From: a bacterium | GTDB taxonomy: Bacteria > UBA8248 > JACPRG01 > G963555815 | Direction: 5' to 3' | DNA length: 64,000 nucleotides | NCBI GenBank assembly: GCA_965261595.1 | Contig: CBDHDG010000002.1 | Coordinates: 32,001 to 96,000 of the forward strand | Shown: positions 4,128-33,501 of the stretch, piece by piece | Position numbering within the stretch: the first letter of the stretch is position 1 | Layout of the letters: each line of letters begins with the position of its first letter | Notes under the pieces: generated by a model | The model's database searches: none | What the model saw: the letters and a program-made list of their open reading frames with translations, nothing else | What the model was told of the DNA's origin: nothing | Made by a program: the position numbers and the translations under genes

Positions 4128-4315
4128 GCGGACATTATAACCAACCCCGCGAAATGTTCAACCCGATATTCAACACAATGAAGTAAACCGGTGTCCTGAC
4201 ATTCGCACCAATGGCGAGCGAGGCGGGGCGATCATTTCGGTTAACATACTGAAACACATGTATATACGTCGTCATTCGTCTGTTTATGTGTATCCGTGAC
4301 CAATTCTATTGATGA

Positions 4316-4751
4316 ATGCTGGGACGACGTGGACCGCACGGCGGGCGAGTTGAGGCTCAGGGACGCCAAGTCGGGTCCGCGCATGGCGCCCCTAACCGGG
4401 CACGTGCTGAGAGTGCTTAACGGCATTCCCCGTATCGAAGGCACTCCCTGGGTGCTTGTCGGACAAAGGCCGGGGACCGGTCTGACGAACCTCGACCACT
4501 ACTGGCAACCCATCCGGGCGCAGGCCGGCTTGGATGACGTCCGGATTCACGACATCCGGCACAGCTATGCATCGAGGGCCCTGGCGCTGGGCGAGAGCCT
4601 GCCCGTGATCGGCAAGCTGCTCGGTCACAGTCAAGTATCAACGACAGCACGTTATGCGCACTTGATGCGGGATGCGGAGAAGGAAGCCGCGACCCGGGTG
4701 GGCGACAGCATCGGCGCCCACATCGGGCCGCGGAGCACCGAGGCGGCATGA
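4316..4751 (+). pseudogene. Tyrosine integrase, C-terminal third only
   Basis: WDDVDRTAGELRLRDAKSG...HDIRHSYASRAL...LGH...TTARYAHL; no N-terminal domains; stop overlaps the next ATG. Confidence 0.88.
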
Positions 4752-5965: not shown

Positions 5966-6164
5966 TCTTTGCCACACCTACGCCTCGCGCGCCCTGGCGC
6001 TCGGAGAAAGCCTGACGATGATCGGTCAGCTTCTCGGACATTCCAAGGTCGGCACCACCGCCCGCTATGCGCATCTCGTGCACGACGCCGAGAAGGCCGC
6101 CGCCGCCCGCACCGGCGACAGCATCGGCGCCCATCTCGTGCCGCAAGCCGCCGCGGCGGCGTAA
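5958..6164 (+). pseudogene. Tyrosine integrase 3' tail
   Basis: VHDLCHTYASRALALGESL...LGH...TTARYAHLVHDAEKAAAARTGDSIGAH, a paralogue of the 4316..4751 tail. Confidence 0.88.
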
Positions 6165-6175
6165 GGCCGGACGTT

Positions 6176-10655: not shown

Positions 10656-12131
10656 TTATTGCCGGTCGAAAACTGCCTCGAAGCTTGCGAGGGCAGATCG
10701 AAGGTTCTCCATGACCTCTTCAGCCAGCACTTCCGGTTCTGGAAGGTTTTGAAGGTCGGTCATCGAAGAATCGCGGAGCCAGAAGACGTCCAGGCTTGCT
10801 TTGTCGCGCGCCAATAGTTCCTCGCGAGCAAATGTCCGCCAGCGACCATCCGGTGTCTCGTCGCTCCAGGTCGGCTTGCGTTCATGCCGGTTGCCAGGAT
10901 TGTAGCAGGTTACGAAATCCTCGAGGTGGCCATAGGTCAGGGGCTTTTGTTTCAACGTGTGATGAACGTTGGTCCGATAGTCGTAATACCAAACCTTGGA
11001 CGTCTGCGGGTCAGGGCTGGCGGCTCGGTTGTCAAAGAAGATGACATTCGCTTTCACGCCCTGGGCATAGAATATCCCCGTAGGCAGCCGAAGGATCGTG
11101 TGCAGGTCGGTCGTCTGAAGCAGTTTCCGACGGATTATCTCGCCGGCACCACCCTCGAACAGCACATTGTCCGGAATGACGATGGCAGCGCGGCCCGTCG
11201 TCTTGAGCATCGTCTTGCTATGCTGGACGAAGTTCAGCTGCTTGTTCGAGGTTGTCGCCCAGAAATCCTGACGGTTGTAGGTCAGGTCATCTGTTTCATG
11301 CTCCCCTTCGGCATTCGTGAAGCTCATTGAGCTCTTCTTTCCGAAAGGCGGATTTGCCAACACGTAGTCGAAGGTGTCGGATGGTGGAGAAACCAAAGCA
11401 TCGGCGGGGGAAACCAGCGTCTCGCCTGTCATTTTGCCGATTCCATGCAGGAACATGTTCATCAGGCAGAGCCGCCGCGTCCCGGCAACGATTTCGTTGC
11501 CGTAGAATGTCGAGTGCTTGAGGAACGCTCTCTGATCCTTGTCGAGCGAGAAATTCTCTGCATCGGTCAGGAAGTCGTGTACGGCGAGAAAGAACCCGCC
11601 CGTGCCGCAAGCGGGATCGGTAATTGTCTTTCCGGGCTCGGGACGGACGCATTCTACCATTGCGCGGATCAGGGCGCGTGGAGTGAAATATTGGCCTGCG
11701 CCGGACTTTGTATCCTCAGCGTTGCGTTCCAGCAGCCTCTCGTAGATGTCGCCCTTGACATCAGCGTCCAGCGTCACCCATTTGGTGCCGTCTACCATAT
11801 CGATGAGGCGGTAGAGCTTGGCTCGATCGGTAATCTTATTCTGCGCCTTCGTGAAGATCTGGCCGAGCATACCTTTCTGTTCACCCAGCTTACGCAGGAG
11901 CATAATGTAATGAGGCTCAAGCTCCGCGCCCCTCCGGGTGGTCAGGCTGGTCCAATCGCAACCCACTGGGATATCTACGTCACGATTGTAGGGTGGTTCG
12001 GCGTATTCGTACGCCATCTTGAGGAAAATGAGGTAGGTCAGCTGCTCGAGGTAGTCGCCATAACCCACGCCGTCGTCGCGCAGCGTAGTACAGAAGCTCC
12101 AGACTTTCGAAATGATTGACTCTGTGTTCAC
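10656..12131 (-). CDS. hsdM: Type I restriction-modification methyltransferase subunit
   Basis: GQYFTPR, DPACGTGGF, NPPF, LRLPTGIFY. Start (GTG 12131 or ATG 12137) overlaps an IS1380 end. Confidence 0.95.
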   Translation of the reverse strand: MNTESIISKVWSFCTTLRDDGVGYGDYLEQLTYLIFLKMAYEYAEPPYNRDVDIPVGCDWTSLTTRRGAELEPHYIMLLRKLGEQKGMLGQIFTKAQNKITDRAKLYRLIDMVDGTKWVTLDADVKGDIYERLLERNAEDTKSGAGQYFTPRALIRAMVECVRPEPGKTITDPACGTGGFFLAVHDFLTDAENFSLDKDQRAFLKHSTFYGNEIVAGTRRLCLMNMFLHGIGKMTGETLVSPADALVSPPSDTFDYVLANPPFGKKSSMSFTNAEGEHETDDLTYNRQDFWATTSNKQLNFVQHSKTMLKTTGRAAIVIPDNVLFEGGAGEIIRRKLLQTTDLHTILRLPTGIFYAQGVKANVIFFDNRAASPDPQTSKVWYYDYRTNVHHTLKQKPLTYGHLEDFVTCYNPGNRHERKPTWSDETPDGRWRTFAREELLARDKASLDVFWLRDSSMTDLQNLPEPEVLAEEVMENLRSALASFEAVFDRQ

Positions 12132-12847
12132 CCGCATTTCCCATATGGATGATAATTTTTAACGCCCCGAAGGCCGTTTTCTCGTGTAAAATCAAGGTGT
12201 TGGCCTCTCCCTGCCATCATCTTGCGAGGGGACCCGATGGGTGAAGCGAAAAAGAGGCCGTTGAGGCTCCAATTCGACGGTCGGCTCAGGCTGGAGTTTC
12301 ACGGAGCAAAGGTTACGAGTGACGCCGGTTTGCTTGCCTATCGTGAACTGGATGAGGTGTTGGGGCTGACGAAGGCGGCCGAGGGGTTTCTGTCCGATTC
12401 ACGGACGGGCGGGAACACCCGGCACAGCCTCACCGCTTTGGTGCGCCAGTCGGTCTACAGCCGCCTGGCAGGATATAAAGACACCAATGATGCCGAGCGG
12501 CTCTGTGTCGATCCCGCCATGCGTCAGGTGGTTGGGGGGCGAGCGAAGTATCACACCGCTGCCTCCACCAGCCAGATGAGCCGATTCGAGACGCAGACCC
12601 TCACCCGGCCCCTTAACCCCTCAAGGCGCTGAGCGGTCTGCCCGGTGTGTTGGTGGATCGTGTCCGCAAACGCAAGCCGATTCGCAAGCTGATCCTGGAC
12701 ATGGACAGTTCGGTCAGCCCGACCCACGGTGAGCAGGAAGGCTCTTCCTACAACGGCCACTTCGGCTGCACCTGCTATCACCCACTGTTTTGCTTCAACC
12801 AGTTTGGCGATCTGGAGCGGGCGCTGTTGCGCAACGGCAAGGTCCAC
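12131..12847 (+). mobile_element. IS1380-family element, left part (tnp from 12237, frameshifted, truncated by IS3)
   Basis: End CCCGCATTTCCCATATGGAT shared with 46494; TSDAGLL, LDMDSS, YNGHF, YHPL motifs. Confidence 0.88.
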
Positions 12848-14252
12848 TCCCCCGCTCTAGGGTTTTGTTGGACACTCGATTGATCCATGATTCATGGAGA
12901 AAGGGGTGTCGCGATGAACGAACAAAAGCAAGAGGGGGCTTTGGCGGAGGGCGCCCGCAGGGCGAACGGAGCCAAGGCCCCAGGGCATCGCAGTGAGCGG
13001 GGTCGGTTCTCCTGCCAGGCGCAAGCGGGAGGCGGTCCTGCGTCTTTTGCGGGGCGAGAGCCTGGAGACGCTCTGCCGCGAGTTGGGCACGACAGCGGCT
13101 CGGCTTTCCGCCTGGTGCGAGGCGTTCCTTCGCGGGGGCGAGGCGGCGCTCAAAGCCCGCCCGGCGGATGAGCGGGACGAGGAGAACGCCCGGCTCAAGG
13201 CCAAGGTGGGTGAACTCACGATGGAGGGCGAGGTCCTGCGGGAGAAGATCGACCGCCTGGAGGCCGGCCGCCCTTTAGCCGGCAGGAGGTGGAGGCGATG
13301 AGTCAGGCCCGCTTCACCTCCACGGGCAGAGCCTACGGCCTGAAGCGGGTGTGCGCCCTTTGGGGCTTGGCGCGCTCCACGGTCTACGCGCAACGGCGGC
13401 GAGAGGCGGTCCCCGTTCATGAACGCCCCACGCCCAATAAGCGCGGCCCTGTGGGCCCGTGCACCGATGCGGAACTCCTCGGCCACATCCGGCAGGTCCT
13501 GGAGGACTCTCCCTTCCATGGCGAGGGCTACCGCAAGGTGTGGGCGAGGCTGCGCTTCGCGGGCATCCGCACCAGCAAGGAGCGGATGCGTCGCCTGATG
13601 CGGGAGGCGGGGCTTCAGGCCCCCCACCGGGTGGGCAAACCCCGAGGTCCCAAGGCCCACAACGGGACCATCCGCACCGAGCGGCCCGACCGAATGTGGG
13701 GCACGCACATGACGACGACGGTGACCACCGAGGAGGGGATGGCCTCGGTGTTCGTGGCGGTGGATCACTGCTCGGTGGACTGCGTGGGGATCCATGCGGC
13801 CAAGAGCGGCAACCGCTTCGAGGCCCTGGAGCCGATCCGGCAGGGGGTCGCCGAGCGCTTCGCCGGCTTGGAGGCGGACGTCGCCGAGGGGCTTAAAGTT
13901 CGTCACGACCACGGCCCCGCCTATCTGTCCGATGACTTTCAGCGGGAGATCGCCTACCTGGGCATGACCAGTTCGCCCAGCTTCGTGCGGGCGCCCGAGG
14001 GAAATGGCTACTGTGAGTGGTTCATCCGCATCTTGAAGGAGAATCTCCTGTGGGTGCGCTCTTTCGCCACCGTAGAGGAACTGCGGTGGGCGCTGCTTGA
14101 GTTCAAGAACCTGTACAACCATCATTGGATTCTCGAGGGCTACGGCTACCGAACGCCGGCCCAGGCAAGGCAGGAAAAACTCGCTCAAGTTGCGGAGGCC
14201 GCATGAGGTCGAATACCCTCACCCGAGTGTCCAATAACCCAGGGGCGGTCCA
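12848..14252 (+). mobile_element. IS3-family element, copy 1 of 5 (defective)
   Basis: Near-identical to four other copies. orfA has an extra G near 13018; orfB (to 14206) has the first catalytic Asp changed to His (WGTHM). Flanks CCAC/CAGC show no target duplication. Confidence 0.93.
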
Positions 14253-14903
14253 CAGCTTATCTGCGTTTTGCGTGCGCCAGTCGGTGGTGAGGCGGCCTAG
14301 ATACGCAGATGTCAGCAGGGATTGGCGGTAGAGGGCAAGGGTGGTTTTCGCCGTTTGCAGGCTCTTGACCCCCTTGTCGATCTCGTCGAACAGCGCCTCG
14401 ATCTTCCCCACGATTCGGCGTTGTTCGTTGGTGGGGGCGATTGGTACGGGTAGAACGCCGAACGCTGACCCTGAAAGCTCTTTGAAAGTGGTGCCGGTCG
14501 CGCGTTGCTCGGCCAGTTCCTTGGACGCTTTGAGGTAGTGATACAGGTATTCATTGAAAATGCCGGAGCACGGTACGACAGATTTGAAGCCCTGATTTGT
14601 TGCTGCCGGTTCAGTATTGATGGCGACGTATCCCACTGGTGCACGGGACGAAAACATCACGCTTCCGGCTGGCATTATCCGAGCGGATGAATTTGCAAGG
14701 CCTTCCTCGGTCAGCGTCTTTGCGCCGCGCGCTATGAATTTTTGTTTGTAGCCAGTGAGATCGGATGGTGCGAACCAGATAACATCGCCGTCCCAATACT
14801 CCCGTTGTTTCGTCGAGGGCGTGCCGCCGGAAACGACGTTCCCGAGTTCCTTGATTACCGTCCATTCCCAAGTCAAAGGGATTTCCCATAAACACTCCGT
14901 CAT
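14253..14903 (-). pseudogene. hsdS: Type I RM specificity subunit, N-terminal half only
   Basis: IPLTWEW, SGGTPST, SSRAPVGYV, TNQGF, PTNEQRRIVGKIEAL, then GRLTTDWR cut by IS3; second target-recognition domain missing. Confidence 0.9.
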
Positions 14904-17632: not shown

Positions 17633-17917
17633 TCAGCCGGGCCTTCCCCTCGAAATCAGGATGTCGCGGAGATGGTCGACGATCGCCATCGTCGCCGCCA
17701 CTTCCGCTTCCTGCGGCAGGTCCCCCTCGATCTCGCCTTCGGCGCGCCTGACGGTCGCCTCGAGCCGGTCCAGCATGTCGCGGATCTCCTCGATCGAGAA
17801 CACGCCTTTTTCGATCAGCCCGTCCATCACGGCGGCCATCACATTACCCATTCCCTTCGCGGCGGCGCCGGCCATCTGGATCCCGGCTTTCGCGAGTTCC
17901 CGATCCCATTGGTCCAT
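17633..17917 (-). CDS. Small helical hypothetical protein
   Basis: AAGGGAGAG before ATG 17917; 94 aa MDQWDRELAKAG...; protein-like composition. Confidence 0.6.
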   Translation of the reverse strand: MDQWDRELAKAGIQMAGAAAKGMGNVMAAVMDGLIEKGVFSIEEIRDMLDRLEATVRRAEGEIEGDLPQEAEVAATMAIVDHLRDILISRGRPG

Positions 17918-18123
17918 TTTTCTCTCCCTTGATCGTGCGTCCGCAGGCCGGTGCGAAGGCGCGGCCTGGCGGACATCCCGCGGGGCGATGCACCCGGAAT
18001 CGCTGGCGTCTCCAGAAGCAAGCCTGCACGCCGGACGGAGCGGGAGTTCCGGCTGCCGGCGGGTCGAAGGCCGGGCTCCCGGAGGGTGCCCGCGCCGCCG
18101 TCCAGCCATTCCGGAGCACGCCC

Positions 18124-19149
18124 ATGACCGACCCCGACACCATCTCCGCCGACTACACGCTGCGCCCCAGCGAACTCGCCGTCACCCTCGCACTTCTGGT
18201 CGAGGCCCGCCAGCCGACCCTGGAATGGGGACCGCCCGGCACTGCAAAATCGATGATCGCCCGGCAGGTCGCCGCCGATGCCGGCCGCCAGTATGTCGAC
18301 GTCCGGGCGCTCCTGCTCGACCCCGTCGACCTGCGCGGCATTCCGTGGCGCGACAGCGCCGACCGCACCCGCTGGGCGCCGCCGGCCTTCCTGCCGCCCA
18401 CCGACGATCCCGGCCGCTGGCTCATCAACCTGGAAGAGCTGCCGTCCGCGGTGCAGATGGTGCAGGCGGCGCTGTATCAGTTGGTGCTCGACCGCAAGGT
18501 GGGCGAATACGAGCTCCCCGAGGGCGCCTCGCTGATCGCCTGCGGCAACCGCGAGTTCGACCGCGGCGTCGTCCACCGCATGCCGACGCCGCTGGCATCG
18601 CGCTTCGTTCATCTGGAGATCAGGGTCGATGCCCAGGACTGGATCGCCTGGGGGGCGGCGAACGGAATCACGCCCGAGGTCCTGTTCTACATCCAGATGC
18701 GCCCCGACATGCTGCACCTGTTCGATCCCCAGTCGCGCGAGAAAGCGTTTTGCTGCCCTCGGACGTGGGAGATGGTTTCCAACATCGTGAACCGGCGGAA
18801 CGGCCTCGATCCGTCCGTCGAACGCGCGCTGTTCCGCGGCACCGTGGGCGAGGCCGCCGCGGTCGAGTTTTCCGCATTTCTGAAGGTCTGGCGCGAGTTG
18901 CCCCATCCGAGGGCCGTCATCGACGATCCCGAGAACGCCGTAGTGCCGGAGAACGCCAGCGCGCTGATCGCGCTCTGCGGCTCGCTCTACCGCATGGCCG
19001 ACGACATCAACCTCGGCGCCATCGTCACCTACGCCACGCGCCTGCGCCGCGAGATCGGCGAGTTCCTCGTCGGTTCCTGCATCCGCCGCGATCCGGACCT
19101 GCAGCGCTCGCCGGCCTTCATCCGCTGGGCCGCCGCCCGCACCCAGTGA
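18124..19149 (+). CDS. MoxR-like AAA+ ATPase
   Basis: WGPPGTAKS (Walker A variant), DLRGIP, INLEEL (Walker B variant), CGNR, PLASRF, PRTWE. Confidence 0.85.
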   Translation: MTDPDTISADYTLRPSELAVTLALLVEARQPTLEWGPPGTAKSMIARQVAADAGRQYVDVRALLLDPVDLRGIPWRDSADRTRWAPPAFLPPTDDPGRWLINLEELPSAVQMVQAALYQLVLDRKVGEYELPEGASLIACGNREFDRGVVHRMPTPLASRFVHLEIRVDAQDWIAWGAANGITPEVLFYIQMRPDMLHLFDPQSREKAFCCPRTWEMVSNIVNRRNGLDPSVERALFRGTVGEAAAVEFSAFLKVWRELPHPRAVIDDPENAVVPENASALIALCGSLYRMADDINLGAIVTYATRLRREIGEFLVGSCIRRDPDLQRSPAFIRWAAARTQ

Positions 19150-19175
19150 CACCGCCATTTTGGGAGATCGACACC

Positions 19176-20087
19176 ATGGACCTCACCCACGACGCCATGC
19201 TGGTCAGCCTGCGCATCAGCGCCTGGTCGGGCCGGCTCTACGACCGCAAGGCGAGCAACCATGTTGCCGTCCACCATGAGGCCTCCGCCAGCGCCGGGCG
19301 CTACAACAAGTGCCTGCTGCCCAAGGCCGCTTTCGCCGCGCTCACCGCCACCATGAGCAAGGCGAGGAGTTCGCATTACGAGCAGACGCTGCCCTGGGAC
19401 GACCAGGGCAGCCGGCTGCTCACCGTCGCCAACTACGGACACTACATGGAACTCCTGGACGGCCTCCGGGAGCGCATGGTGCGCGAGCGCGCCCGCTTCA
19501 TCGAGGACTACGAGGACAACATCGACCAGGCCCGGCTCGATCTCGGCAAGCTGTTCCGCATCGAGGACTATCCCTCGCAGGAAGCGCTGCAGGGAAAGTT
19601 CGGCATCCGCTACCGCATCACGCCCGTCCCGGACGCCGACCACTTCATGGCGAAGCTCGCCTCGGACGACACCGACCGGGTCAAGCGCGACATCGAAAGC
19701 CAGATCGAGGAACGCCTGCACGATGCCGTGGGCGACCTCTACCGGCGCCTCGGCGAGGCGGTCGAGCGGGTCGGCGACCGGCTGCGCGAGGACGGCGAGG
19801 GCAAGCCGCTGGTGTTCCGCGATTCGATGATCCATAACATCCGGGGCCTGGTCGACGTGGTGCCGCGTCTCAACATCTTCGGCGACGACACCCTGGCCCG
19901 TCTCTGCGAGCAGGTGAAGGAGAAGATCGCCGGCGTCGAGCCGGATTCGCTCCGCCCCTCGCGGACCTTCGATCCCGCTGCCCGCGCCCGCGTAAAGCGC
20001 GACGCCGACGCGCTGATGGAGCAGTTCGCGGGGTATTTCGCGCCTGAGGCCGGGACCGCAGTCGAGTCCGAGCGGAAGGCCGCGTGA
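19176..20087 (+). CDS. Conserved-looking hypothetical helical protein (possibly DUF3150-like)
   Basis: GGGAG RBS, 303 aa, strong GC3 bias, sits between the AAA and vWA genes. Confidence 0.75.
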   Translation: MDLTHDAMLVSLRISAWSGRLYDRKASNHVAVHHEASASAGRYNKCLLPKAAFAALTATMSKARSSHYEQTLPWDDQGSRLLTVANYGHYMELLDGLRERMVRERARFIEDYEDNIDQARLDLGKLFRIEDYPSQEALQGKFGIRYRITPVPDADHFMAKLASDDTDRVKRDIESQIEERLHDAVGDLYRRLGEAVERVGDRLREDGEGKPLVFRDSMIHNIRGLVDVVPRLNIFGDDTLARLCEQVKEKIAGVEPDSLRPSRTFDPAARARVKRDADALMEQFAGYFAPEAGTAVESERKAA

Positions 20088-21457
20088 TGGCCGCCCGTGT
20101 GCACAGCGAATCCGCGCGGCGCATCAGCGGTTGCGTGACCGCCTTGCTGCGCGAGCAGCCCTTCTTCGGCAGCCTCGCCTTGAGGCTGCCGATCCGCGCC
20201 GATGCCAGCCGCGAGACCGTGGCCAGCGACGGGCGGGAGATCCGCTATTCGCCCCGGTGGATCGCCGACACCGATGCCCATGTCATCGAGACCGCCATGG
20301 CAAGGATCGTCCTGGCGTGCGCGCTGAAGCACCACACGCGCCGGGGTGAGCGCGATCCGGAGCGCTGGCAGTGCGCCTCCCAGCTGGTGACCCACGGTTT
20401 GCTGAGGGACGCCGGTTTCACCCTGCCACCCGACGCCGAAGCCTGGGACGGCATCAGCGTCGAGCAGGCCTATGACCGCCTGCCGGCGCCGGACCCCGAC
20501 GACGGCGACGGCGACGGCAACGCGCCGTCCGGCGCCGGAGACGCCGGCGCGCCAGATTCGTCACCATCAACTGACTCCGGCGGTGACGATAATTCCGGCG
20601 GGTCCGATGACGGGCCTGGCGACGGGTCGGGCAAAGCGTCGGACAATGGCGATCCGCAGGACGGCGACGGCCAGGATACGGGCCCCGGGGCCGACGCCCT
20701 GCCGAGCCGCGATCCCGCCGGCACCGGCGAGGTCATGGACGCACCCGCCGGTGCCGGGCAGGGCGGCGCCGACCCGTCCCCAGCCGAGATTGCCGAAGAG
20801 GAGCAGGCCTGGGACGAGGCCATGCACCAGGCGGCCAGCCTAGCCAAGGCCCAGGGCAGGATGCCGGGCGCCGTCGAAGAGACGGTCCGGGGCGCCCACG
20901 TCAGCACCGTCGACTGGCGGTCGCTCTTGCGCCGCTACATGACGGACGCCTCGAAGAGCGACTATTCCTGGAGCCTGCCCAACCGGCGCTTCATCGACAG
21001 CGGGTTGTATTTGCCGTCGATCCGCTCGGAGGGCATCGATACGATCGCCGTCATCGTCGACACCTCGGGCTCGCTGCCGGCCAGGACGCTGGCGGAGTTC
21101 TGGGCCGAGGTGCGGGAGGTCACGGCGGAGCTTCAGCCGGAGCGCGTCATCCTTCTGCAGGTCGACGCCGCGGTGCAGGACGCGGCCGAATACGCCGCCG
21201 CCGACCTGCCCGACGAAATCGCGATCAGGGGCCGTGGCGGCACCGACTTCCGTCCGGGCTTTGCCTGGCTCGAAGAGCACGACATCCAGCCCGGCGTCTA
21301 CCTCTACCTCACCGACATGCTGTGTTCGAGCTACCCGGAGGACGAGCCAAGCTTCCCTGTCGTGTGGGTAAATTATGCCCCACCGCCCGGCGACTGGAAC
21401 CGCGAACCCTGGGACGAGCGCATCGACATCGGAACCTCTTCGGGGGCTGCGTCGTGA
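20084..21457 (+). CDS. DUF2201-type metallopeptidase-like plus vWA protein (peptidase motif degenerate)
   Basis: PFFGSL, HHTRRGERDP, D/G-rich linker, PNRR, MIDAS DTSGS, GRGGTDFRP, YLTD. Confidence 0.88.
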   Translation: MMAARVHSESARRISGCVTALLREQPFFGSLALRLPIRADASRETVASDGREIRYSPRWIADTDAHVIETAMARIVLACALKHHTRRGERDPERWQCASQLVTHGLLRDAGFTLPPDAEAWDGISVEQAYDRLPAPDPDDGDGDGNAPSGAGDAGAPDSSPSTDSGGDDNSGGSDDGPGDGSGKASDNGDPQDGDGQDTGPGADALPSRDPAGTGEVMDAPAGAGQGGADPSPAEIAEEEQAWDEAMHQAASLAKAQGRMPGAVEETVRGAHVSTVDWRSLLRRYMTDASKSDYSWSLPNRRFIDSGLYLPSIRSEGIDTIAVIVDTSGSLPARTLAEFWAEVREVTAELQPERVILLQVDAAVQDAAEYAAADLPDEIAIRGRGGTDFRPGFAWLEEHDIQPGVYLYLTDMLCSSYPEDEPSFPVVWVNYAPPPGDWNREPWDERIDIGTSSGAAS

Positions 21458-21847: not shown

Positions 21848-24325
21848 ATGAATCACATCGCCCCCCTGCACGAACCGCTCATCCGGGAGGTTCCGCTGAG
21901 CCGGCTGGCGCTTGCGCCCGAGAACGTGCGCAAGACGCCGGCCGACCCGGTCGCCGAGGCCGAGATGAAGGCCTCCATTGCCACCCATGGCCTGCTGGAG
22001 AACCTGGTCGTTCGCATGGACGGACCGGCCGATGCCGGCGCCTATGCCGTGATCGCCGGCGGACGCCGCCTCGCGGCCATGAAGGCCTTGGCCGAGGACG
22101 GCACGATCGACGCCGACCACCCGGTGCCCTGCCTAGTCGCCGCCGATCCGGCGATGGCGGGCGAGCTGTCGCTGGCGGAGAACATCGTCCGCATCGCCAT
22201 GCATCCCGCCGATCAGGTGATCGCGTTCTCGAAGCTGGCCGACGCCGGCCTATCGGTGGGTTCCATCGCGGCGCGTTTCGGCACGGCCGAGCGCCTGGTC
22301 GAACAGCGCCTGCGCCTCGGCAACGTGGCGCCGGACCTGCTCGACGCCTACCGCGCCCACAAGATCGACCTCGAAGTGCTGAAAGCCTTCTCCGTCACGC
22401 CCGACCATGCCCGCCAGATGGCGGCCTGGGAACAGGTCGCGGGGCAGGGCTACCGGCCCAGCGCGTGGCAGGTGAAACGGTTGCTCACCGAGGAACGGAT
22501 TCCGGGCACCTCGGCGGTCGCGCGCTTCGTCGGCGTCGAGCCCTATGAGGCCGCCGGCGGCAAGGTGCTGCGCGATCTCTTCTCGAACGACGACGACAGC
22601 GCCGTCTGGTTCGACGACCCGGCGCTCCTGAACAATCTCGCCATGGAGAATCTCCGGGTCTTCAAGGACGAGCTCGAGACCCGCTGGAAGTGGGCCACGG
22701 CCATGGTCGAGGTCGACTGGAACACCACCGCCCGCTACGGGCGGATCTATCCCGAGCCGGCCGAGCGCACGCCGGAAGAGCAGGCCGAGATCGAGAAGCT
22801 GGAGGCACGCCAGGGCGTCCTCGCGGAGCTCGACGACGATGCCTGGACCGAGGAGCTGGTCCGCGAGGCCGAGACCATCGAGGAACGCCTCGACGAGATC
22901 GAGGGCGGGATCGAGGCCCGCGCCGTCTACAGGCGCGAGGATTTCGGGATCGCCGGCTGCATCGCCACCATCGGACGCGACGGCACGCTCCAGGTCATCC
23001 ATGGCCTGGTCCGGCCCGAGGACATGCCGAAGGAACCGGAAGCCGCCGGAAACACCGGTGCCAGATCTGGTGACGGCAATGACGGCGACAGCCATACCGC
23101 CGAAGCCGGGACCGGAACCGATGCCGGCCACATCTCCGTCCCGGCAATGTCCGAGCCCATGAACCTGCCGAAGGACCGCGAGGCCGAGGCGCGCAAGGAA
23201 GCGGGCGTCGGCATCGGACTTGCCGACGATCTGCGGTCGATCCGGACAGCGCTCGTCAAGGCGAAGCTCGCCGGGGACTTCGAGGCCGCCTTCGACCTCA
23301 TGCTGTTCCAGCTCGGCCGGTCCGTCTTCACCGACGGATACAAGGCGCACGCGCTCGACATCGCGGTCCGCGAGACCGCCGATCGGCCGACCATGCGCAT
23401 GAACGACGCCGACTTCGCCGCCTGGAGCCCCGGCGAGGCCATGCTGGAGGACCGCTCCGGTCTCAGCTTCGACTGGCTGGAGATCGAGGACGACGGCGAA
23501 TCCTTCGCGGCGCTGCGCGCGCTTTCGCAGGCCGACAAGCAGGCGCTGTTCGCCGCCTGCGTCGCGCGCACGGTGAAGGGGCAGCTCGCCTTCGAGCCCT
23601 TGGCACGCCCGGAACTGGAGGTCACGGTCGCCCGGCTCGATATCGACTTCGCCAGCCATGTGCGCCCCACGGCGGACATGCTGTGGTCGCGGATCAACAA
23701 GGGTCGGATTCTCGACATCGCCCGCTCGGTGCTGAGCCCGGCCTGGGCCTCGGCGCGGTCGAAGAACAAGAAGCCCGATCTCGCCAAGGCGATGGAGAAG
23801 GCCTTCGCGGCCGGCGATCCGCCGCTCGGGCTACATGCCGACGACCATGCGGCGGCGCTCGCCTGGATGCCGCCGGGTTTCGCGGCGTTCGATACCGGCC
23901 GCGTGGAGGACGAGCCGGAAGACGCCGCGGCGGCGGAACCGGCGGCGGAGGCATCCGGTCCCGACCCCGAACCCGTTGCCGGCCCCGCCGCCGATGCGGG
24001 GAGCCCGGAGACGCCCGCCGATCCGCCGCGCACGAACTCCGTGGTCGAGAGCGTCGAGGCGCCGGCGGTCGCCGAACGCCGGGCCGCCGAACGTGCCACC
24101 GGCAACGGTCATGCCACGCCGGCTGCTCCGGAGACCGATTCCGCCGCCGGCGACCACGGGAGCGATGCCAGGGTGGACGGTCCCGAGTCCGGAGCCTCCG
24201 AACCGGCCAAGCCGGCGGATATCGCCGCCCGCCATCCCGGACCGGTGAACGGCCACGATGCCGGCGACGGGCTCGACATTCCCGAGTTCCTGCGCCGCGT
24301 ACCGGGGCATTCCGCCGTCAACTGA
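21848..24325 (+). CDS. parB: Long ParB/RepB/Spo0J-family protein with disordered tail
   Basis: ENVRK, HGLLENLVV, AGGRRLAA, SLAEN, HPADQ, HTH (IAARFG...VEQRLRL); GAGGGAG RBS. Confidence 0.9.
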   Translation: MNHIAPLHEPLIREVPLSRLALAPENVRKTPADPVAEAEMKASIATHGLLENLVVRMDGPADAGAYAVIAGGRRLAAMKALAEDGTIDADHPVPCLVAADPAMAGELSLAENIVRIAMHPADQVIAFSKLADAGLSVGSIAARFGTAERLVEQRLRLGNVAPDLLDAYRAHKIDLEVLKAFSVTPDHARQMAAWEQVAGQGYRPSAWQVKRLLTEERIPGTSAVARFVGVEPYEAAGGKVLRDLFSNDDDSAVWFDDPALLNNLAMENLRVFKDELETRWKWATAMVEVDWNTTARYGRIYPEPAERTPEEQAEIEKLEARQGVLAELDDDAWTEELVREAETIEERLDEIEGGIEARAVYRREDFGIAGCIATIGRDGTLQVIHGLVRPEDMPKEPEAAGNTGARSGDGNDGDSHTAEAGTGTDAGHISVPAMSEPMNLPKDREAEARKEAGVGIGLADDLRSIRTALVKAKLAGDFEAAFDLMLFQLGRSVFTDGYKAHALDIAVRETADRPTMRMNDADFAAWSPGEAMLEDRSGLSFDWLEIEDDGESFAALRALSQADKQALFAACVARTVKGQLAFEPLARPELEVTVARLDIDFASHVRPTADMLWSRINKGRILDIARSVLSPAWASARSKNKKPDLAKAMEKAFAAGDPPLGLHADDHAAALAWMPPGFAAFDTGRVEDEPEDAAAAEPAAEASGPDPEPVAGPAADAGSPETPADPPRTNSVVESVEAPAVAERRAAERATGNGHATPAAPETDSAAGDHGSDARVDGPESGASEPAKPADIAARHPGPVNGHDAGDGLDIPEFLRRVPGHSAVN

Positions 24326-24411: not shown

Positions 24412-26196
24412 ATGAACCAGATTGCCAGAACGCCGCCGGCGAATATCCGCGCCCGCATCCACGACAACGCGTTGAAGCGCGTCACGAGGGTTTACGCATC
24501 GACGCTCGCCGACGTGCTGACCGAGACGTTGCAGAATTCACGCCGCGGCGGCGCTACCGGGGTCCGCATCTCCGTCGGCACGCTTACCGACCAGCTTGGC
24601 GGCGAAACGCGTTTCACCGTCACCATCGCCGACGACGGAACCGGCATCGCCGATCCCGCCGTCCTGCTGAGCTTCGGCGAGAATGGCTGGTCCGACGACC
24701 TCGTCCGCCGCGAGGACGCCGCCGGCTTCGGTTTCGCGAGCCTGTCGCGCCGCGGCTGCACGGTCGCCTCGCGGCCGCGTTCGCCGGACGGCCATACCTT
24801 GCCCGGCTGGCGGGTCGATCTCGCCCCGGAACATTTCCTGGGTGAGGCGGAGGCCGAGGTTCACGCCGATGACAGCGCGCCGTTCCCTCATGGCACGTCG
24901 ATATCGTTCGAAGCCACCGAATCCGCCGCCGCGATCCGCAATGCGGCCGTGAACGCCGCACGCCACTATCCGTTGCCCGTCATGTTCGACGGGATTCCCC
25001 GCACCGAGCCCGGCGGGGAACAGCTCGACCGCCGGGCCTTCCTCGACGGCGCGATCCATGCCGAGCCGTGGCGCGGCCTCGCCTTCGGCGTCTTCCGGAA
25101 CCGCCATCGCGGCTACAACGACCCCGATCTCAATTTCTTCGGCCTCACCGTGCCGCTCAGCCTGCCCACGGTCGAGAGCGTCCATGGCGGCATCTGGAGC
25201 GTTCGCGCCGATATCGGCGACTGCCCCGATCTGGAACTGGTGCTGCCTGCGCGCAAGGAAGCCGTCGAGAACGATTTCCTGAAGGAGATGCGGAGTGCCG
25301 CCCGGCTTGCCATCTACCGCGCCATGGCTGCCGATCCCGAACCGCGTCCCGCATACGCCGACTGGAAGAGCGCGCGGGACGCCGGCATCGACATGGCGCC
25401 GCCGCCGGCCGTCCTGCGGCCCTGGCGCCCCGGCGTCGCCGATGTCGACGACTGGCGCGAGCCGCCCAAGCTCGCCGCAGCCGTCCGCGAGCCGCTGGTC
25501 ATGGCCTGCGATCCGGAACCGCCCGAGGCGCAAGCGCTCTGGCGCGCCGCCGAACGCGCCGGCATCGCATCCCGCCTGTTCGAGGCCGACCGGCGGCTCG
25601 ACGGGTATGACTGGCATGACGAGATCCATCGGATTACCGGCATCGAAACCGAGATTGCCGCTGAAGTCGCCACCGCGGTCGCCGCAGAGGCGGCTTGGCT
25701 GCCGCTCGACGATTTCCCGCTGCCTGAGCGGGCCGGTGCGCCTGCGGCGCCTTTGCCCGGACGTCCGCAAGCCATCCGTATGACCCTTGCCGTCACGCCC
25801 GCGCGCGGGCCGGGCCGGACACTCGATCTCCCGGCCGATCTCGTGTTCGCGGGCGAGGCCTGGTCCTGGGTCGCCGAGGCCCTGCCGCTGGTGACCGGCG
25901 ACAGCGACTTGCAGCCGCACCAGCTCGCGGAGCTTCTGCGCGCCGGCTTCTTTTCGCCGTCGGACGATGCGGATTCGGACTCCTGGGAGACCCAGCGCGA
26001 CCGCTTCGACCAGGAAGCCTCGCATATAGCCATGAGGCTGCTCGCGTCCGATGACGAGGCCAGAATCGCCTCGATCGCCGAGGCGGTGCGGCGCGAGCTG
26101 TTCTGGCTCGTGCCCCGGGACCGGCCCGTGGAGATTTCCATTTGCCGGCCCGAGGTCCGGGTCACCCTTCGCGATGCCTTGGAGGACGCGTCATGA
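24412..26196 (+). CDS. GHKL (HATPase_c-like) ATP-binding protein
   Basis: ETLQNSRR (N box), DDGTG (G1), AGFGF (G2), HGT; GGGGAG RBS. Confidence 0.82.
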   Translation: MNQIARTPPANIRARIHDNALKRVTRVYASTLADVLTETLQNSRRGGATGVRISVGTLTDQLGGETRFTVTIADDGTGIADPAVLLSFGENGWSDDLVRREDAAGFGFASLSRRGCTVASRPRSPDGHTLPGWRVDLAPEHFLGEAEAEVHADDSAPFPHGTSISFEATESAAAIRNAAVNAARHYPLPVMFDGIPRTEPGGEQLDRRAFLDGAIHAEPWRGLAFGVFRNRHRGYNDPDLNFFGLTVPLSLPTVESVHGGIWSVRADIGDCPDLELVLPARKEAVENDFLKEMRSAARLAIYRAMAADPEPRPAYADWKSARDAGIDMAPPPAVLRPWRPGVADVDDWREPPKLAAAVREPLVMACDPEPPEAQALWRAAERAGIASRLFEADRRLDGYDWHDEIHRITGIETEIAAEVATAVAAEAAWLPLDDFPLPERAGAPAAPLPGRPQAIRMTLAVTPARGPGRTLDLPADLVFAGEAWSWVAEALPLVTGDSDLQPHQLAELLRAGFFSPSDDADSDSWETQRDRFDQEASHIAMRLLASDDEARIASIAEAVRRELFWLVPRDRPVEISICRPEVRVTLRDALEDAS

Positions 26197-28796: not shown

Positions 28797-28977
28797 CCGG
28801 CCCCGCCGGCGCCAACGCGCGCCGGAACACCGCCACCATGTAATCCCTCACCCGTCCCGCTCCGGCCGCCATGAGGCCGGTCAGCCGGTGCCGCGACAGG
28901 CCGCCGGCGCGGCGCGGGAGCACGGGCTTCGCGCCGCCCGCCCGGCGCTTCCCCGCAATTCCAGCACGGAGATCTTC

Positions 28978-31900
28978 ATGCTCGACGCCCATTCGGCGGC
29001 GGACGCGTCCGCACGCCCGCAGCTTCCCCTCGATCCCGCCACCGCATCCGTTTCCGTGCGCCCGGCGCCGTCCGCTTCGGACGCCCTGTTTGCCGCCGCC
29101 AGGACCCTGCTGCCGGTCCTGGAAGCCGGCCGGCCGCTCGATGCCGGGACGCTCAGGGACGCCATGACGCGCGCCTTCGGCGCCACCGATGCCGAGGGCG
29201 CCTGGCTCTGGAAGGATGCCTACGAGGCCGCCGAAGCCGCCGTCGTGCTGTTCGTGCAGCGTTACGGGCGCGCCATGCGCAAGCAGACCGGGGCCGGGCC
29301 GGACGGCCCCCGCCACATGTTGGCAATGCTGGACGCCGTCGCGGCGCTCGAGCCGTCGCACACGAAGCGCTCCGAGGAGCAGATCCGCCTGCAGCAGTTC
29401 TCGACGCCGCTGCCGCTGGCCTATGTCGCGCTCCGCGCCGCCGCCATCCGGCCGGGCGATACCGTGCTGGAGCCGAGCGCCGGCACCGGCATGCTGGCGG
29501 TGATGGCCGAATGCGCGATGGCCAACCGGGCCGCGGGCAGTCTGTATCTCAACGAATACGCCCACACGCGCGCGCATCTCCTGACCCATCTGTTCCCGCA
29601 GGCCGTCACCACCGCCTTCAATGCGGAAGCCATCGCCGACCGGCTGCACGACGTGACGCCCACGGCCGTCATCATGAACCCGCCGTTTTCCGCGACGCCG
29701 GGCGTCGACCGCATCCGCCACGACGCGGATCTGCGCCATATCCGCTCCGCATTTTCGATGCTACCGCCGGGAGGTCGATTGGTGACGATTACCTCGGCGA
29801 ACTGCATCCCCGGCGATGCCGCCTGGCGGGACACCTTCGACTCCGTCGACGGCGGCGCCTGCACCGTCTTCACGATGGCTATCGACGGCCGCGCCTATGC
29901 AAGGCGCGGCACCGGCTTCGACACGCGCCTCACCGTGCTGGAACGCAGCGCCAAGCCGGAAATCGACATCGACCGGGAGGCCCGCGCCGCCGACGCCGCC
30001 GAACTTCTCGACGCCGTCATTGCCAAGGTTCCGCCCAGGCTGCCGATTACGCCGGAGACCGCTCGGCCCATCCCGGCCGGCCCGGCACGGGACCTGTTCG
30101 GCAAGGCGGTCAGGCCGCCGGCCACGAAGGGCAGCACCGGCGCCAATTCCGCTGCCGCGCCCGCGCCCGCCCACGACTGGGGACCTGTCGCCGAGCTCGT
30201 CGTCGAGACCGGCGCCCCCGACACCGTTACGCAAGAATCGGCCACGCAGGCGAATGCCGGCCCCTACGAACCGTGGCGGCCCGGCGTCGCGCGGGTGCCG
30301 GGCGCGATCGCCCATCCCACGCCGCTGGTGCAGTCCGCCGCCATGGCCGCGGTGCCGCATCCCGTGCCGACCTACCGGCCGGTGCTGCCCGAACGCGTGG
30401 TGGCGGACGGGCTCCTGTCGGACGCGCAACTCGAAAGCGTCGTGCTTGCGGGCGAGGCCCACTCCCGCCATCTCGCCGCGGACTACCGCATCGGTGCGGG
30501 CTGGGAGACCGTGCAGCGCTGCCCGGAGGACGACGGCGACGATGACGGCAGTGCCGGCGCCGCCGATCTCACCGACGACGGCGAGGTCCTGTCCACCCCG
30601 GTGCGCTTCCGGCGCGGCTGGATGCTCGGCGACGGCACCGGCGCCGGCAAGGGCCGCCAGGTCGCCGCCATCATGCTCGACCACTGGCTGCGCGGCCGCA
30701 GGCGCGCGCTCTGGCTGTCGCAGTCCGACAAGCTGGTCGAGGACGCAAGGCGCGACTGGTGCGCGCTCGGCGGGCGCGAGGACGACGTCATCCCGCTCGG
30801 CAAGTTCCGCCAGGGGGCCGAGATTCCGATGGCCGAGGGCATCCTCTTTGCCACCTACGCCACGCTGCGCTCGCCGGCCCGCCAGGGCAAGACCTCGCGC
30901 CTCGACCAGATCGTCGCCTGGCTTGCCGGCTCATTGGACGAGGATGACCGCCACGCCTTCGACGGGGCGGTGATCTTCGACGAGGCGCATGCCATGGCCA
31001 ATGCGGCCGGGTCCAAGGGCAACCGCGGCGAGGTCAAGCCGTCCCAGCAGGGCCGCGCCGGCCTGCGGCTTCAGAATGCGCTGCCCGATGCGCGCATCGC
31101 CTATGTCTCGGCCACCGGCGCCACCACCGTCCCCGGCCTCGCCTATGCCGGCAGGCTCGGGCTCTGGGCCGCCGGCGAGACGCCGTTCGAGACCCGCGTC
31201 GAATTTGTCACCGCCATGGAAGCCGGCGGCGTCGCCGCGATGGAGGTGGTCGCTCGCGACCTCAAGGCCCTCGGCCTCTACCAGGCCCGGGCGCTCTCCT
31301 ATGACGGAGTCGAGGTCGAGACCCTCGAACACCCGCTCACCCCCGAGCAGCGGCACATCTACGACGCCTATGCCGGCGCCTTCAAGATCATCCACCGCAA
31401 CATCCAGGAGGCGCTCAAGGCCACCGGCATCGTCGACGGCGAGGACACCCTGAACAGGAACGCCAAGTCGGCCGCGCTCTCGGCCTTCGAGGGCGCCAAG
31501 CAGCGTTTCTTCGGCCATCTGCTGACCGCCATGAAGTGCCCGTCGCTGATCCGCGCGATCGAGGCCGACCTCGATTCCGGGCGCTCCGCCGTCATCCAGC
31601 TGGTCTCCACCGGCGAGGCGCTGATGGAGCGGCGCATCGCCGAGATCCCGGCGTCCGAATGGGACGACCTCTCCGTCGACCTCACGCCAAGGGAGACCGT
31701 GATCGAGTTCCTGGCCCACGCCTTCCCCGTGCAATTGCAGGAGCCCTTCACCGACGAGAGCGGCAACCTGTTCTCGCGGCCAGTGTTCGACGGTGACGGC
31801 AACCCCGTGCTCTGCCAGGAGGCGGTCGCCCGCCGCGACGCGCTGATCGAGAAGCTCGCCGCGCTCCCGCCGGTGCCGTCGGCGCTCGACCAGATCGTGC

Positions 31901-33501
31901 AGCATTTCGGGCACGAGGCGGTCGCGGAAGTGACCGGCCGCTCGCGCCGGGTGCTGAGAATTTCCGATGCGCGCGGCGAGCGCCTGGCGCTGCGCAGCCG
32001 GCCGGCGTCGGCCAACCTCGCCGAGACCGCCGCCTTCATGGATGCCCGGAAACGCATCCTGGTGTTCTCCATGGCCGGCGGGACCGGGCGCAGCTACCAC
32101 GCCGATCTCGGCTGCGCCAACACCGACCGCCGCATCCACTACCTGCTCGAGCCGGGCTGGCGCGCCGACCAGGCGATCCAGGGGCTCGGCCGGACCCACC
32201 GCACGCACCAGGCGTCGGCGCCGCTGTTCCGGCCCGTCACCACGGACGTGAAGGGCGAGCGGCGCTTCATCGCCACCATCGCAAGGCGGCTCGACAGCCT
32301 CGGCGCCATCACCCGCGGCCAGCGCGATTCCCAGACCGCCATGGGCGGCGACGACCAGGCGCTCTTTCGCGAGAGCGACAACCTGGAGAGCCTCTATGCC
32401 AAGGCGGCACTCAGGCGCTTCTACATCGCGCTCTGGCGCGGCAACATCCCGGGCTGGTCGCTCGACCGTTTCGCGGACGCCACCGGCCTCAAGCTGGTCC
32501 ACGAGGGCAACCTCAAGGAGGACCTGCCGCCGATGCCGCGATTCCTCAACCGGCTTCTGGCGCTGCCGATCGACGAGCAGAACCAGCTCTTCGCCGAACT
32601 GGAAGAGCGGATCGCAGCCAACATCGAGCAGGCCATGGAGGCCGGCGCCTACGAGGTCGGGGTCGAGACCGTGCGCGCCGACTCGCTCGCCATCGCCGGC
32701 CGGGAGACGCTCTACGAACATCCCGGCACCGGGGCGGTCACCGAGCTAGTCGAGATCGTGTGGCGCGACAGGCTGGAACCGCTCGATGCCGATACCGCGC
32801 TCGAGATCGGCGCCTGCGAACCCGGACCCGACAAGAAGCCCCGGCTGGCGGTCAACACCCGCTCGAAGCGCGCCGCCGTCATTCTGCCGGCGCCGTCGCG
32901 CATGTTCGACGATGGCGGGGTGCAGGAACGCGTCCGCCTCGTCCGGCCGGCCACACGCGAGACCATGGCCCGCGCCGAGCTCGACGCCTCCAACTGGCGC
33001 CCGGCCGACGAAGCCCGCTGGCGCATGCTATGGGAGCATGAGATCGGCGAGCTGCCGACGCACCGGGAGTCCCGCTTCTGGCTCGCCGCCGGCCTGCTGC
33101 TGCCCGTCTGGGACCGGCTGCCGGCCGAGAACATGCGGGTACGCCGGCTCGCCACGGATACCGGCGAAACGCTGATCGGGCGCGTGCTCGACGCCGAACA
33201 GGTCGCGGCCGTGCGCGCGAGTTTCGGGCTCGACGGCGGGCTCGCCATGACCGGCGCGGAGGCCTTCGAGGCCGTCATGAGCCGCGGCTCGGCACTCGCC
33301 CTTGCCAATGGCTGGCGCCTTGCCCGCCGGCGCATCATGGGCGCCGACCGGGTCGAGATCGAGGGGCCGGCCGATACCGATACCGCGCTCCTGAAGCGCA
33401 TCGGCTGCACGGTCGAGATCGTGTCCTGGCGCGCCCGCGCCTTCGCCCCCGGCGCCGAGGTCCTCGACCGCGTCCTCGAACGCTGGCCGCTCGCCGCCTG
33501 A
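28978..33501 (+). CDS. Strawberry-notch-family methyltransferase/helicase fusion
   Basis: QQFSTP, LEPSAGTG, NPPF (MTase); GDGTGAGKGR, DEAH, SATG, GRTHR (SNO-type SF2 helicase). Confidence 0.93.
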   Translation: MLDAHSAADASARPQLPLDPATASVSVRPAPSASDALFAAARTLLPVLEAGRPLDAGTLRDAMTRAFGATDAEGAWLWKDAYEAAEAAVVLFVQRYGRAMRKQTGAGPDGPRHMLAMLDAVAALEPSHTKRSEEQIRLQQFSTPLPLAYVALRAAAIRPGDTVLEPSAGTGMLAVMAECAMANRAAGSLYLNEYAHTRAHLLTHLFPQAVTTAFNAEAIADRLHDVTPTAVIMNPPFSATPGVDRIRHDADLRHIRSAFSMLPPGGRLVTITSANCIPGDAAWRDTFDSVDGGACTVFTMAIDGRAYARRGTGFDTRLTVLERSAKPEIDIDREARAADAAELLDAVIAKVPPRLPITPETARPIPAGPARDLFGKAVRPPATKGSTGANSAAAPAPAHDWGPVAELVVETGAPDTVTQESATQANAGPYEPWRPGVARVPGAIAHPTPLVQSAAMAAVPHPVPTYRPVLPERVVADGLLSDAQLESVVLAGEAHSRHLAADYRIGAGWETVQRCPEDDGDDDGSAGAADLTDDGEVLSTPVRFRRGWMLGDGTGAGKGRQVAAIMLDHWLRGRRRALWLSQSDKLVEDARRDWCALGGREDDVIPLGKFRQGAEIPMAEGILFATYATLRSPARQGKTSRLDQIVAWLAGSLDEDDRHAFDGAVIFDEAHAMANAAGSKGNRGEVKPSQQGRAGLRLQNALPDARIAYVSATGATTVPGLAYAGRLGLWAAGETPFETRVEFVTAMEAGGVAAMEVVARDLKALGLYQARALSYDGVEVETLEHPLTPEQRHIYDAYAGAFKIIHRNIQEALKATGIVDGEDTLNRNAKSAALSAFEGAKQRFFGHLLTAMKCPSLIRAIEADLDSGRSAVIQLVSTGEALMERRIAEIPASEWDDLSVDLTPRETVIEFLAHAFPVQLQEPFTDESGNLFSRPVFDGDGNPVLCQEAVARRDALIEKLAALPPVPSALDQIVQHFGHEAVAEVTGRSRRVLRISDARGERLALRSRPASANLAETAAFMDARKRILVFSMAGGTGRSYHADLGCANTDRRIHYLLEPGWRADQAIQGLGRTHRTHQASAPLFRPVTTDVKGERRFIATIARRLDSLGAITRGQRDSQTAMGGDDQALFRESDNLESLYAKAALRRFYIALWRGNIPGWSLDRFADATGLKLVHEGNLKEDLPPMPRFLNRLLALPIDEQNQLFAELEERIAANIEQAMEAGAYEVGVETVRADSLAIAGRETLYEHPGTGAVTELVEIVWRDRLEPLDADTALEIGACEPGPDKKPRLAVNTRSKRAAVILPAPSRMFDDGGVQERVRLVRPATRETMARAELDASNWRPADEARWRMLWEHEIGELPTHRESRFWLAAGLLLPVWDRLPAENMRVRRLATDTGETLIGRVLDAEQVAAVRASFGLDGGLAMTGAEAFEAVMSRGSALALANGWRLARRRIMGADRVEIEGPADTDTALLKRIGCTVEIVSWRARAFAPGAEVLDRVLERWPLAA

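Follow-up and report, generated by a model that had tools for sequence, protein, structure and literature searches.

What an FtsZ-like peptide is doing at the end of a DNA-binding protein from a mobile element is the question raised by this locus. The window (the whole stretch of 64,000 nucleotides that was analysed) carries a gene for an 825-residue ParB-like protein whose folded body is followed by a long acidic linker and, just before the stop codon, by the peptide LDIPEFLRR. An earlier note, made from the letters of this DNA, had described a mobile-element ParB laid out like FtsZ, with a folded body, a linker and a terminal peptide. Both parts of that description hold: the protein is a HerB-type ParB-like protein of a conjugative element family, and its layout resembles that of FtsZ in composition, in the divergence of the linker and in a tail that is the best non-FtsZ match of the host genome to a matrix of FtsZ peptides. 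The terminal peptide may dock in the pockets that receive the FtsZ C-terminal peptide, a reading tentatively preferred here and given slightly less than an even chance, and the FtsZ-like tip suggests, without proving it, that the element reaches into the host division machinery. The gene and the parts of its product are as follows.

21848..24325, plus strand: HerB-type (YfjB/ParB2-like) ParB-family gene, 825 aa, with ATG at 21848 and stop codon at 24323-24325 (open reading frame and translation).
21884..22444, plus strand: ParB N-terminal (CTPase-fold) domain and helix-turn-helix, residues 13-199 (Pfam, PDB sequence matches, invariant residues).
22445..23893, plus strand: family-specific body, equivalent to HerB domains D3 and D4 (alignment with an IncF plasmid homologue).
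23864..23881, plus strand: WMPPGF, residues 673-678, where the folded body ends in a conserved segment (invariant W673, and G677 at least 90% conserved; aligns with WVPGWM of the IncF protein).
23894..24262, plus strand: acidic Ala/Pro-rich linker of predicted disordered type, residues 683-805 (composition, divergence).
24248..24259, plus strand: NGHD, another short conserved stretch, about 5 residues before the motif (N801 93% and G802 95% conserved).
24272..24298, plus strand: LDIPEFLRR, a short linear motif resembling the FtsZ C-terminal peptide (exact encoding, conservation, matrix scores).
24299..24325, plus strand: VPGHSAVN, the 8 residues after the motif, and the stop codon (translation).

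The start is at 21848, and not at 21650, from which a longer GTG-initiated version could begin, because M1, I4 and A5 are invariant columns in 37 close homologues. The earlier note had placed LDIPEFLRR exactly, just before the stop codon, from which 8 residues separate it, and its estimate of about 125 aa of A/P/E/D-rich sequence after the folded domains compares with a linker of 123 aa in which these four residues make up 59%. The linker has a net charge of -17 and 7% hydrophobic residues, versus 28% in the folded part, and is probably disordered, judging from its composition and its divergence. Most relatives have only two residues after the motif (VH, VQ or VR), versus eight in the window protein. 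The FtsZ protein of the host (394 aa, encoded next to ftsA) has the C-terminal end EEDELDTPTFLRNKAD, and FtsZ proteins likewise have a disordered linker followed, near the C-terminus, by [DE]-[IVL]-P-x-F-L-[RK]-[RK]. The differences are that the window peptide belongs to a DNA-binding protein of the ParB family, FtsZ being a tubulin-like GTPase, and that the window family has an extra conserved NG[HR]D upstream of the motif.

The terminal peptide was compared with the linker in an alignment of 74 full-length proteins read from DNA, comprising the window protein and the products of 73 of 79 related loci. By the host labels of the public records, these 79 loci are alphaproteobacterial (42), or belong to Binatia (14), Thermodesulfobacteriota (9), Gammaproteobacteria (7), Deltaproteobacteria or Syntrophobacterales (5), Gemmatimonadota (1) and an unspecified 'bacterium' (1). 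Within the motif, P812 and R816 are conserved in 100% of the sequences, F814 and L815 in 99%, E813 in 95% and I811 in 82%, whereas bins of the linker between residues 701 and 800 are 16-24% identical to the window protein and contain 25-59% gaps; the retention of the motif over a diverging linker, on which the earlier note had proposed to test its idea among homologues, is therefore found. The 25-residue bins of the folded domains are 50-89% identical, except for bin 401-425 (24%), and a low-complexity loop lies inside the body at about residues 396-445. Across 52 distinct DNA versions of the motif, P, L and F are written with different synonymous codons, which fits selection on the peptide; the peptide, but not the linker, is thus apparently under selection.

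When 5.8 billion proteins were searched by word index, 8000 candidates were scored and 3163 of these were matches. The strict pattern [LIVM][DE][ILV]PxF[LIM][RK] is present in 100 of the 120 closest homologues listed (66-98% identity), and another 7 differ by a single residue around the PEFL core, so that this core is kept in 107 of the 120. The remaining 13 have unrelated, mostly Arg-rich ends and look frameshifted or truncated in a manner typical of high-GC DNA. A database search with the tail only (residues 781-825) yielded, from 48 candidates, no matches but ParB homologues, and is uninformative on other families; the matches in a protein atlas were ParB clusters only.

The likeness to FtsZ was quantified with a position matrix built from 35 distinct FtsZ 11-mers. 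The underlying FtsZ sample consisted of 59 C-termini, drawn from the host phylum, from a sample of Alphaproteobacteria and from five genomes carrying homologues of the ParB-like protein. When the matrix was run over 6.01 million six-frame peptide windows of the 6.17-Mb host genome, the top scores were those of the terminal FtsZ peptide (28.5) and of a second, internal copy in FtsZ (24.0). The tails of six ParB paralogues scored 23.6 and were the best non-FtsZ matches, the next best segment, inside an open reading frame (ORF), scoring 23.3. The 99th percentile of the same matrix over the last 40 residues of 4018 likely host genes is 6.6, and background segments scoring as high as the ParB tails number well under 1 per million. 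In a reverse BLOSUM62 scan with LDIPEFLRR over 6.07 million six-frame peptide windows, nine non-ParB segments scored at least 30; the FtsZ C-terminal peptide is one of these, and the sole other near-C-terminal segment lies within a folded 3-hydroxyacyl-CoA dehydrogenase. The strict pattern occurs ten times in the six-frame translation of the genome, six of the ten occurrences being ParB paralogues, and its rarity together with this distribution indicates that the match exceeds chance. A resemblance without functional meaning, in which a conserved terminus is FtsZ-like by accident or is a C-terminal degradation tag, therefore appears highly improbable: short motifs do recur by chance, and a degron is conceivable because the F-plasmid relative HerB is described as short-lived after transfer (PMC13370423), but the low background and the conservation across elements in hosts labelled as several phyla speak against it.

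Of the 9 positions of the ParB peptide, 8 agree with the alphaproteobacterial FtsZ consensus, L[DE]IPAFLRR. Endings of the form ...IP[AT]FLRR were found in 23 of the 29 alphaproteobacterial FtsZ proteins sampled, and FLRR in 3 of 26 from the host phylum. Among hosts carrying homologues of the ParB-like protein, the FtsZ peptides DIPTFLRK, NIPAFLKR, DIPAFLRK and DIPAYIRR have the same core. FtsZ of the host (on contig C5) and of the whole phylum sample has two motifs resembling the C-terminal peptide, the internal one (for example EDLDIPTNIRRG or SVPAYVRMK) lying about 35 residues before the terminal LD[TVI]PTFLR[KN]. Beyond FtsA, ZipA, MinC and SlmA, the partners of the FtsZ C-terminal peptide include ZapD and ClpX, and the FtsA-FtsZ peptide pair of Thermotoga is said to be known from a crystal structure.

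The window protein is assigned, from its sequence, to the HerB/YfjB/ParB2 family of leading-region proteins and not to the partition ParB proteins. BLASTP aligned it end to end with an Escherichia coli IncF homologue (query 12-703 versus subject 36-666, 28% identity, E 3e-45) encoded between ssb and psiB, and tblastn on plasmids found relatives in at least 5000 records, 3835 of them conjugative. Pfam ParB_N matches residues 13-81 (E 1e-4, under the gathering score), residues 14-199 match PDB sequences of Spo0J and Noc (E 5e-8), and NCBIfam gives weak PRTRC-ParB and Noc matches; phrog_7783 spans residues 12-669 (E 8e-73), and phrog ParB-like families match to about residue 243. G71, R74 and N112 are invariant among 65 diverse homologues, and a GxxRxxA-type phosphate-binding box is present (GGRRLAA, residues 71-77) that aligns with AGGRRLAA of the IncF protein. 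The traits of a partition ParB are missing: in place of an N-terminal ParA-activating peptide, 12 residues only precede ParB_N; in place of a short C-terminal dimerisation domain, the C-terminal half is a HerB-type body of about 480 residues; and the contig of the window has no match to AAA_31 or CbiA that would mark a ParA-type gene, in agreement with the earlier note.

The F-plasmid member of this family, YfjB, was renamed HerB in a preprint of July 2026, in the available text of which it is a zygotically induced protein that binds CTP, has, besides a helix-turn-helix, the new domains D3 and D4 (the latter being the core of the dimer), gathers in foci on the nucleoid, and binds host chromosomal sites after transfer, reprogramming host transcription (PMC13370423). 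The ParA-independent segregation that the earlier note thought possible is accordingly not supported, the characterised member being a transiently expressed, host-chromosome-binding reprogrammer and no partition protein (PMC13370423). By homology, the window protein would bind CTP, form a dimeric clamp bearing a helix-turn-helix, and load on DNA soon after entry. It resembles the HerB proteins of F and F-like plasmids over the whole folded length, with a ParB CTPase fold, a helix-turn-helix and two family-specific domains, the last ending in W-x-P, and apparently also in setting, as seen in a better-preserved paralogous element, which has an F-type type IV secretion system (T4SS), a TrwC relaxase and ssb. 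It differs in that about 140 further residues, ending with the FtsZ-like peptide, follow the body, where the E. coli IncF homologue has a short acidic tail; its gene is on integrative elements, beside a GHKL-like gene rather than psiB. The C-terminal tail of HerB itself is called only a predicted short helix by its describers, who also postulate an unidentified loading partner (PMC13370423).

The tail varies widely beyond the close relatives. A search of 1.84 billion cluster representatives was made and its best 150 matches (34-94% identity) were examined; the end of the folded body is recognisable in 109 of these, of which 49 stop within 30 residues after the body, 13 have long tails without the motif and 47 have tails tipped with [ILVMAF]Px[FW][LMI], mostly LPAFL or VPAFL, a few residues from the C-terminus. 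Plasmid proteins of Yoonia and Ponticoccus end in ...SSLPAFLSGDAA and ...DVDLPAFLTAD..., respectively, and acidic tails without the motif were found in proteins of Polaromonas, Pseudosulfitobacter, Novosphingobium and E. coli. Because the tail is present, motif-less or absent across the cluster representatives and plasmid relatives, the motif is regarded as an old, optional module of the HerB family, of which the window lineage has the most FtsZ-like form. The transfer systems that accompany it differ: MOBF/F-type in the window family and MOBP/MPF_T in Ponticoccus, the Yoonia plasmid being mobilizable only. Throughout the HerB family, the last segment of the folded body has the form W-[LMVI]-P-x-x-[LFMW]-[RK...] (WMPPGF, WVPGWM, WLPALMR and WVPAYLR are examples); it resembles the terminal [LIV]PxF[LM] motif of the tail, which may derive from it.

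Several of these observations, and others, weigh against docking on FtsZ-peptide receptors. Between P and F, 95% of the close family have Glu, where the sampled FtsZ proteins have Ala or Thr. Among the 47 motif-tipped tails, R or K after the core is in the minority, Q, T, S, E and D being common, and W sometimes replaces F; the FtsZ-matrix 99th percentile is exceeded by 20 of the 47 and the 95th by 30, versus none of the 62 without the motif. Distant relatives keep a looser [LIV]PxF[LM], often followed by acidic residues, so that FtsZ partners need not have been involved in what the peptide originally did; this older motif is less FtsZ-like and may serve another partner, and the W-[LMV]-P-x-x-[LFM] segment at the end of the body is a hint that the motif arose, and has its partner, within the family. 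The motif is absent from the E. coli IncF homologue and from all 34 viral-contig homologues with a complete C-terminus, although the latter are distant relatives that do not discriminate between the readings. The characterised relative, F-plasmid HerB, acts on host transcription, no division role or phenotype is mentioned in the available text of its description, and the word FtsZ does not occur in the text of the preprint, supplements aside (PMC13370423).

The looser core of the distant relatives makes another partner a serious rival, and it is quite possible that the peptide docks on a partner unrelated to division and that its FtsZ likeness is convergent. The partner could be the protein's own D1-D4 body (in autoinhibition or clamp closing), a DNA-loading partner such as that postulated for HerB, or a coupling protein, for which the peptide would be a translocation signal. 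In favour of this rival, a similar W-hydrophobic-P-x-x-hydrophobic segment is present at the end of the body; the pED208 T4SS is described as translocating a Cre fusion of 'ParB2', from an ssb-parB2-psiB-psiA cluster, with a frequency of about 1e-3 per donor (PMC8406263); and T4SS signals are described as sometimes C-terminal, hydrophobic or positively charged (PMC11288057). However, the E. coli homologue lacks the motif although it is encoded at the ssb-psiB position that the translocated pED208 ParB2 also occupies (a comparison of position, not of the pED208 sequence), and the invariance of P, F and L suggests a defined pocket rather than some general signal of charge or hydrophobicity. Against a non-division partner in general stand the agreement of the close family with the FtsZ peptide at 8 of 9 positions as the top non-FtsZ match in 6 million peptide windows, the absence of the peptide from every other protein of these elements, and the occurrence of the motif with F-type, MPF_T and merely mobilizable backbones alike. 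Membrane targeting by a short amphipathic helix, of the kind found in MinD or FtsA, which would tether the DNA-bound protein in the manner of Noc, is highly improbable: IPEFLRRV does alternate hydrophobic and basic residues at the end of a long linker, and the ParB relative Noc is described as coupling DNA and membrane binding (PMC12704722), but the segment has only about 8 residues and an invariant Pro, and distant relatives are acidic after the core (LPAFLEDDE, LPAFLTDDE), unsuited to anionic membranes.

Other explanations were rejected, one of which concerns a neighbouring gene. The genes flanking the ParB-like gene are as follows.

20084..21457, plus strand: upstream neighbour with DUF2201 metallopeptidase-like and VWA-like domains (family matches).
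24436..26196, plus strand: downstream neighbour of 586 aa with a weak GHKL ATPase signature (Pfam HATPase_c, E 5e-4).

In 73 of the 79 related loci the GHKL-like gene lies directly 3' of the ParB-like gene, and its product was considered as the partner of the peptide; this candidate was dropped as the main rival because the two are uncoupled in plasmid relatives, Novosphingobium pCAR3 having the gene without the motif, and the Yoonia and Ponticoccus plasmids the motif without the gene. The 586-aa protein had no PADLOC, PHROG, NCBIfam or meaningful PDB match. A tag shared with other proteins of the element was also rejected: when the whole genome was searched for [ILVM]Px[FW][LMI] at C-termini with acidic surroundings, only the six ParB paralogues and three unrelated ORFs were found; the peptide is C-terminal in no other ORF of the genome and is not a general tag of the element. 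The tip motif of single-stranded DNA-binding protein, DDDIPF, needs a free C-terminal Phe, and the sliding-clamp motif QLxLF needs a leading Gln. Both were discarded as poor fits to the window peptide, in spacing and in the need for these residues.

On the upstream side, a DUF2201-type gene precedes the ParB-like gene in 62 of the 79 related loci. An 808-aa ORF without a family match overlaps the start of the DUF2201/VWA-like gene by 4 nt (the pair spanning 17661-21457) and recurs upstream of the ParB-like gene in 49 of the 79 loci; a PDB sequence search with the 808-aa protein gave nothing meaningful. PADLOC had no match for the ParB, GHKL, 808-aa or DUF2201 proteins. No F-like single-stranded DNA promoter hairpin was found upstream of the ParB-like gene, the 390-nt spacer folding no better than shuffled sequences (z 0.15 and 0.34 for the two strands).

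The ParB-like gene lies in a leading-region-like block, and the window copy is a decayed member of a family of F-type integrative conjugative elements, as is concluded from the full set of parts in a paralogous element on contig C7. The window has no transfer genes, and contains pieces of a type I restriction-modification system and many insertion sequence (IS) copies; coupling-protein genes number nine in the genome, and none is on the contig of the window. The better-preserved C7 element encodes TraC, TraU, TraN, TraH, TraG and TraK of an F-type T4SS, a TrwB-type coupling protein and a TrwC relaxase and, beyond IS elements, has ssb and genes for a strawberry-notch-like helicase, DUF2958, a GHKL-like protein and the ParB-like protein. 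Measured from its ParB-like gene, ssb is 9 kb away and the genes for the TrwC relaxase and the F-type T4SS are about 30 kb away; the window copy has lost all of these. ParB-like paralogues with the same peptide are present at six places in the genome: in the window (contig C2) and at C4:921536, C5:1052510, C6:1324393, C7:59385 and C7:1330406. The six HerB-type paralogues and nine coupling-protein genes indicate many copies of related F-type integrative conjugative elements.

Elsewhere in the window, three genes for tyrosine recombinases and a fragment of one form a cluster at 2880-7348 (2880-4124 on the minus strand; 4296-4748, 4748-5962 and 5969-7348 on the plus strand), and this cluster probably marks the end of the element or of nested elements. 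One IS3-type IS is present in five copies, one of them inverted (12993-14206, 37540-38753, 42134-43452, 44837-46155 and 48004-49322), each made up of a helix-turn-helix ORF of 102-137 aa and a 305-aa rve ORF, and more DDE transposase fragments are found between 33 and 52 kb. One IS copy lies between the hsdM (10656-12134) and hsdS (14103-14900) genes of the type I restriction system. A strawberry-notch-like helicase of 1537 aa (AAA_34 and Helicase_C_4; 28888-33501) is methyltransferase-like in its N-terminal region and weakly matches mad2 of PADLOC, and the combination of this helicase with RadC and DUF2958 is typical of anti-defence or leading-region blocks.

Under the preferred reading, mimicry of the FtsZ C-terminal peptide, this lineage would have added to the HerB body a flexible acidic arm of about 125 residues, with a tip, L[DE]IPEFLRR, that copies the FtsZ peptide, most closely in its alphaproteobacterial form. 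The tip would dock in one or more FtsZ-peptide pockets, of which subdomain 2B of FtsA is the candidate most widely shared among the labelled hosts. Focus formation by HerB-type proteins, and their loading on DNA in dimeric form, could make the decoy multivalent and DNA-anchored. Arrays of the protein would display many copies of the peptide and, in competition with FtsZ, these would occupy its anchors and regulators or draw them onto the nucleoid. Septation might then be delayed or locally blocked, in the manner of nucleoid occlusion, during establishment or integration of the element. The broadest form of this proposal, that the HerB-type clamps of a large group of conjugative elements in hosts labelled as several phyla are transient division-delay or nucleoid-occlusion devices, capturing FtsA and other receptors through a multivalent decoy in the new host or the donor and so protecting establishment or integration, is unlikely as it stands, though conceivable.

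Parts of such a mechanism have precedents. Fragments of the extreme FtsZ C-terminus are described as inhibiting growth of E. coli in vivo, with predicted binding to FtsA 2B and to the FtsZ GTPase site (PMC10769210). Conjugative elements carry CbtA/YeeV domains, in polyvalent proteins, that inhibit FtsZ or MreB, act early and are proposed to delay division, although these act on FtsZ or MreB polymer surfaces (PMC5512222). Noc and SlmA are of the same kind as the proposed device in being DNA-bound proteins that interfere with Z-ring assembly, and Noc is a ParB paralogue with a weak likeness, in NCBIfam and PDB matches, to the N-terminal domains of the window protein, but differs in using an N-terminal membrane helix. 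SlmA is described as working through the FtsZ C-terminal peptide (PMC4117426), which it binds, whereas the window protein would display a copy. Literature searches found no paper linking a ParB/HerB-type protein with the FtsZ C-terminal peptide, and no decoy of the FtsZ docking peptide was found in print.

On entry of a conjugative element into a cell, the genes for HerB-type proteins are expressed among the earliest, and the F-plasmid HerB is the sole member characterised so far. The peptide is short, its predicted receptors are known and point mutants are obvious, and the hypothesis is therefore open to simple assays. If it is true, the tail would be a natural decoy of the FtsZ C-terminal peptide, an idea so far backed only by synthetic, growth-inhibiting FtsZ fragments, and contact with the division machinery would be a second, directly testable output of the HerB family.

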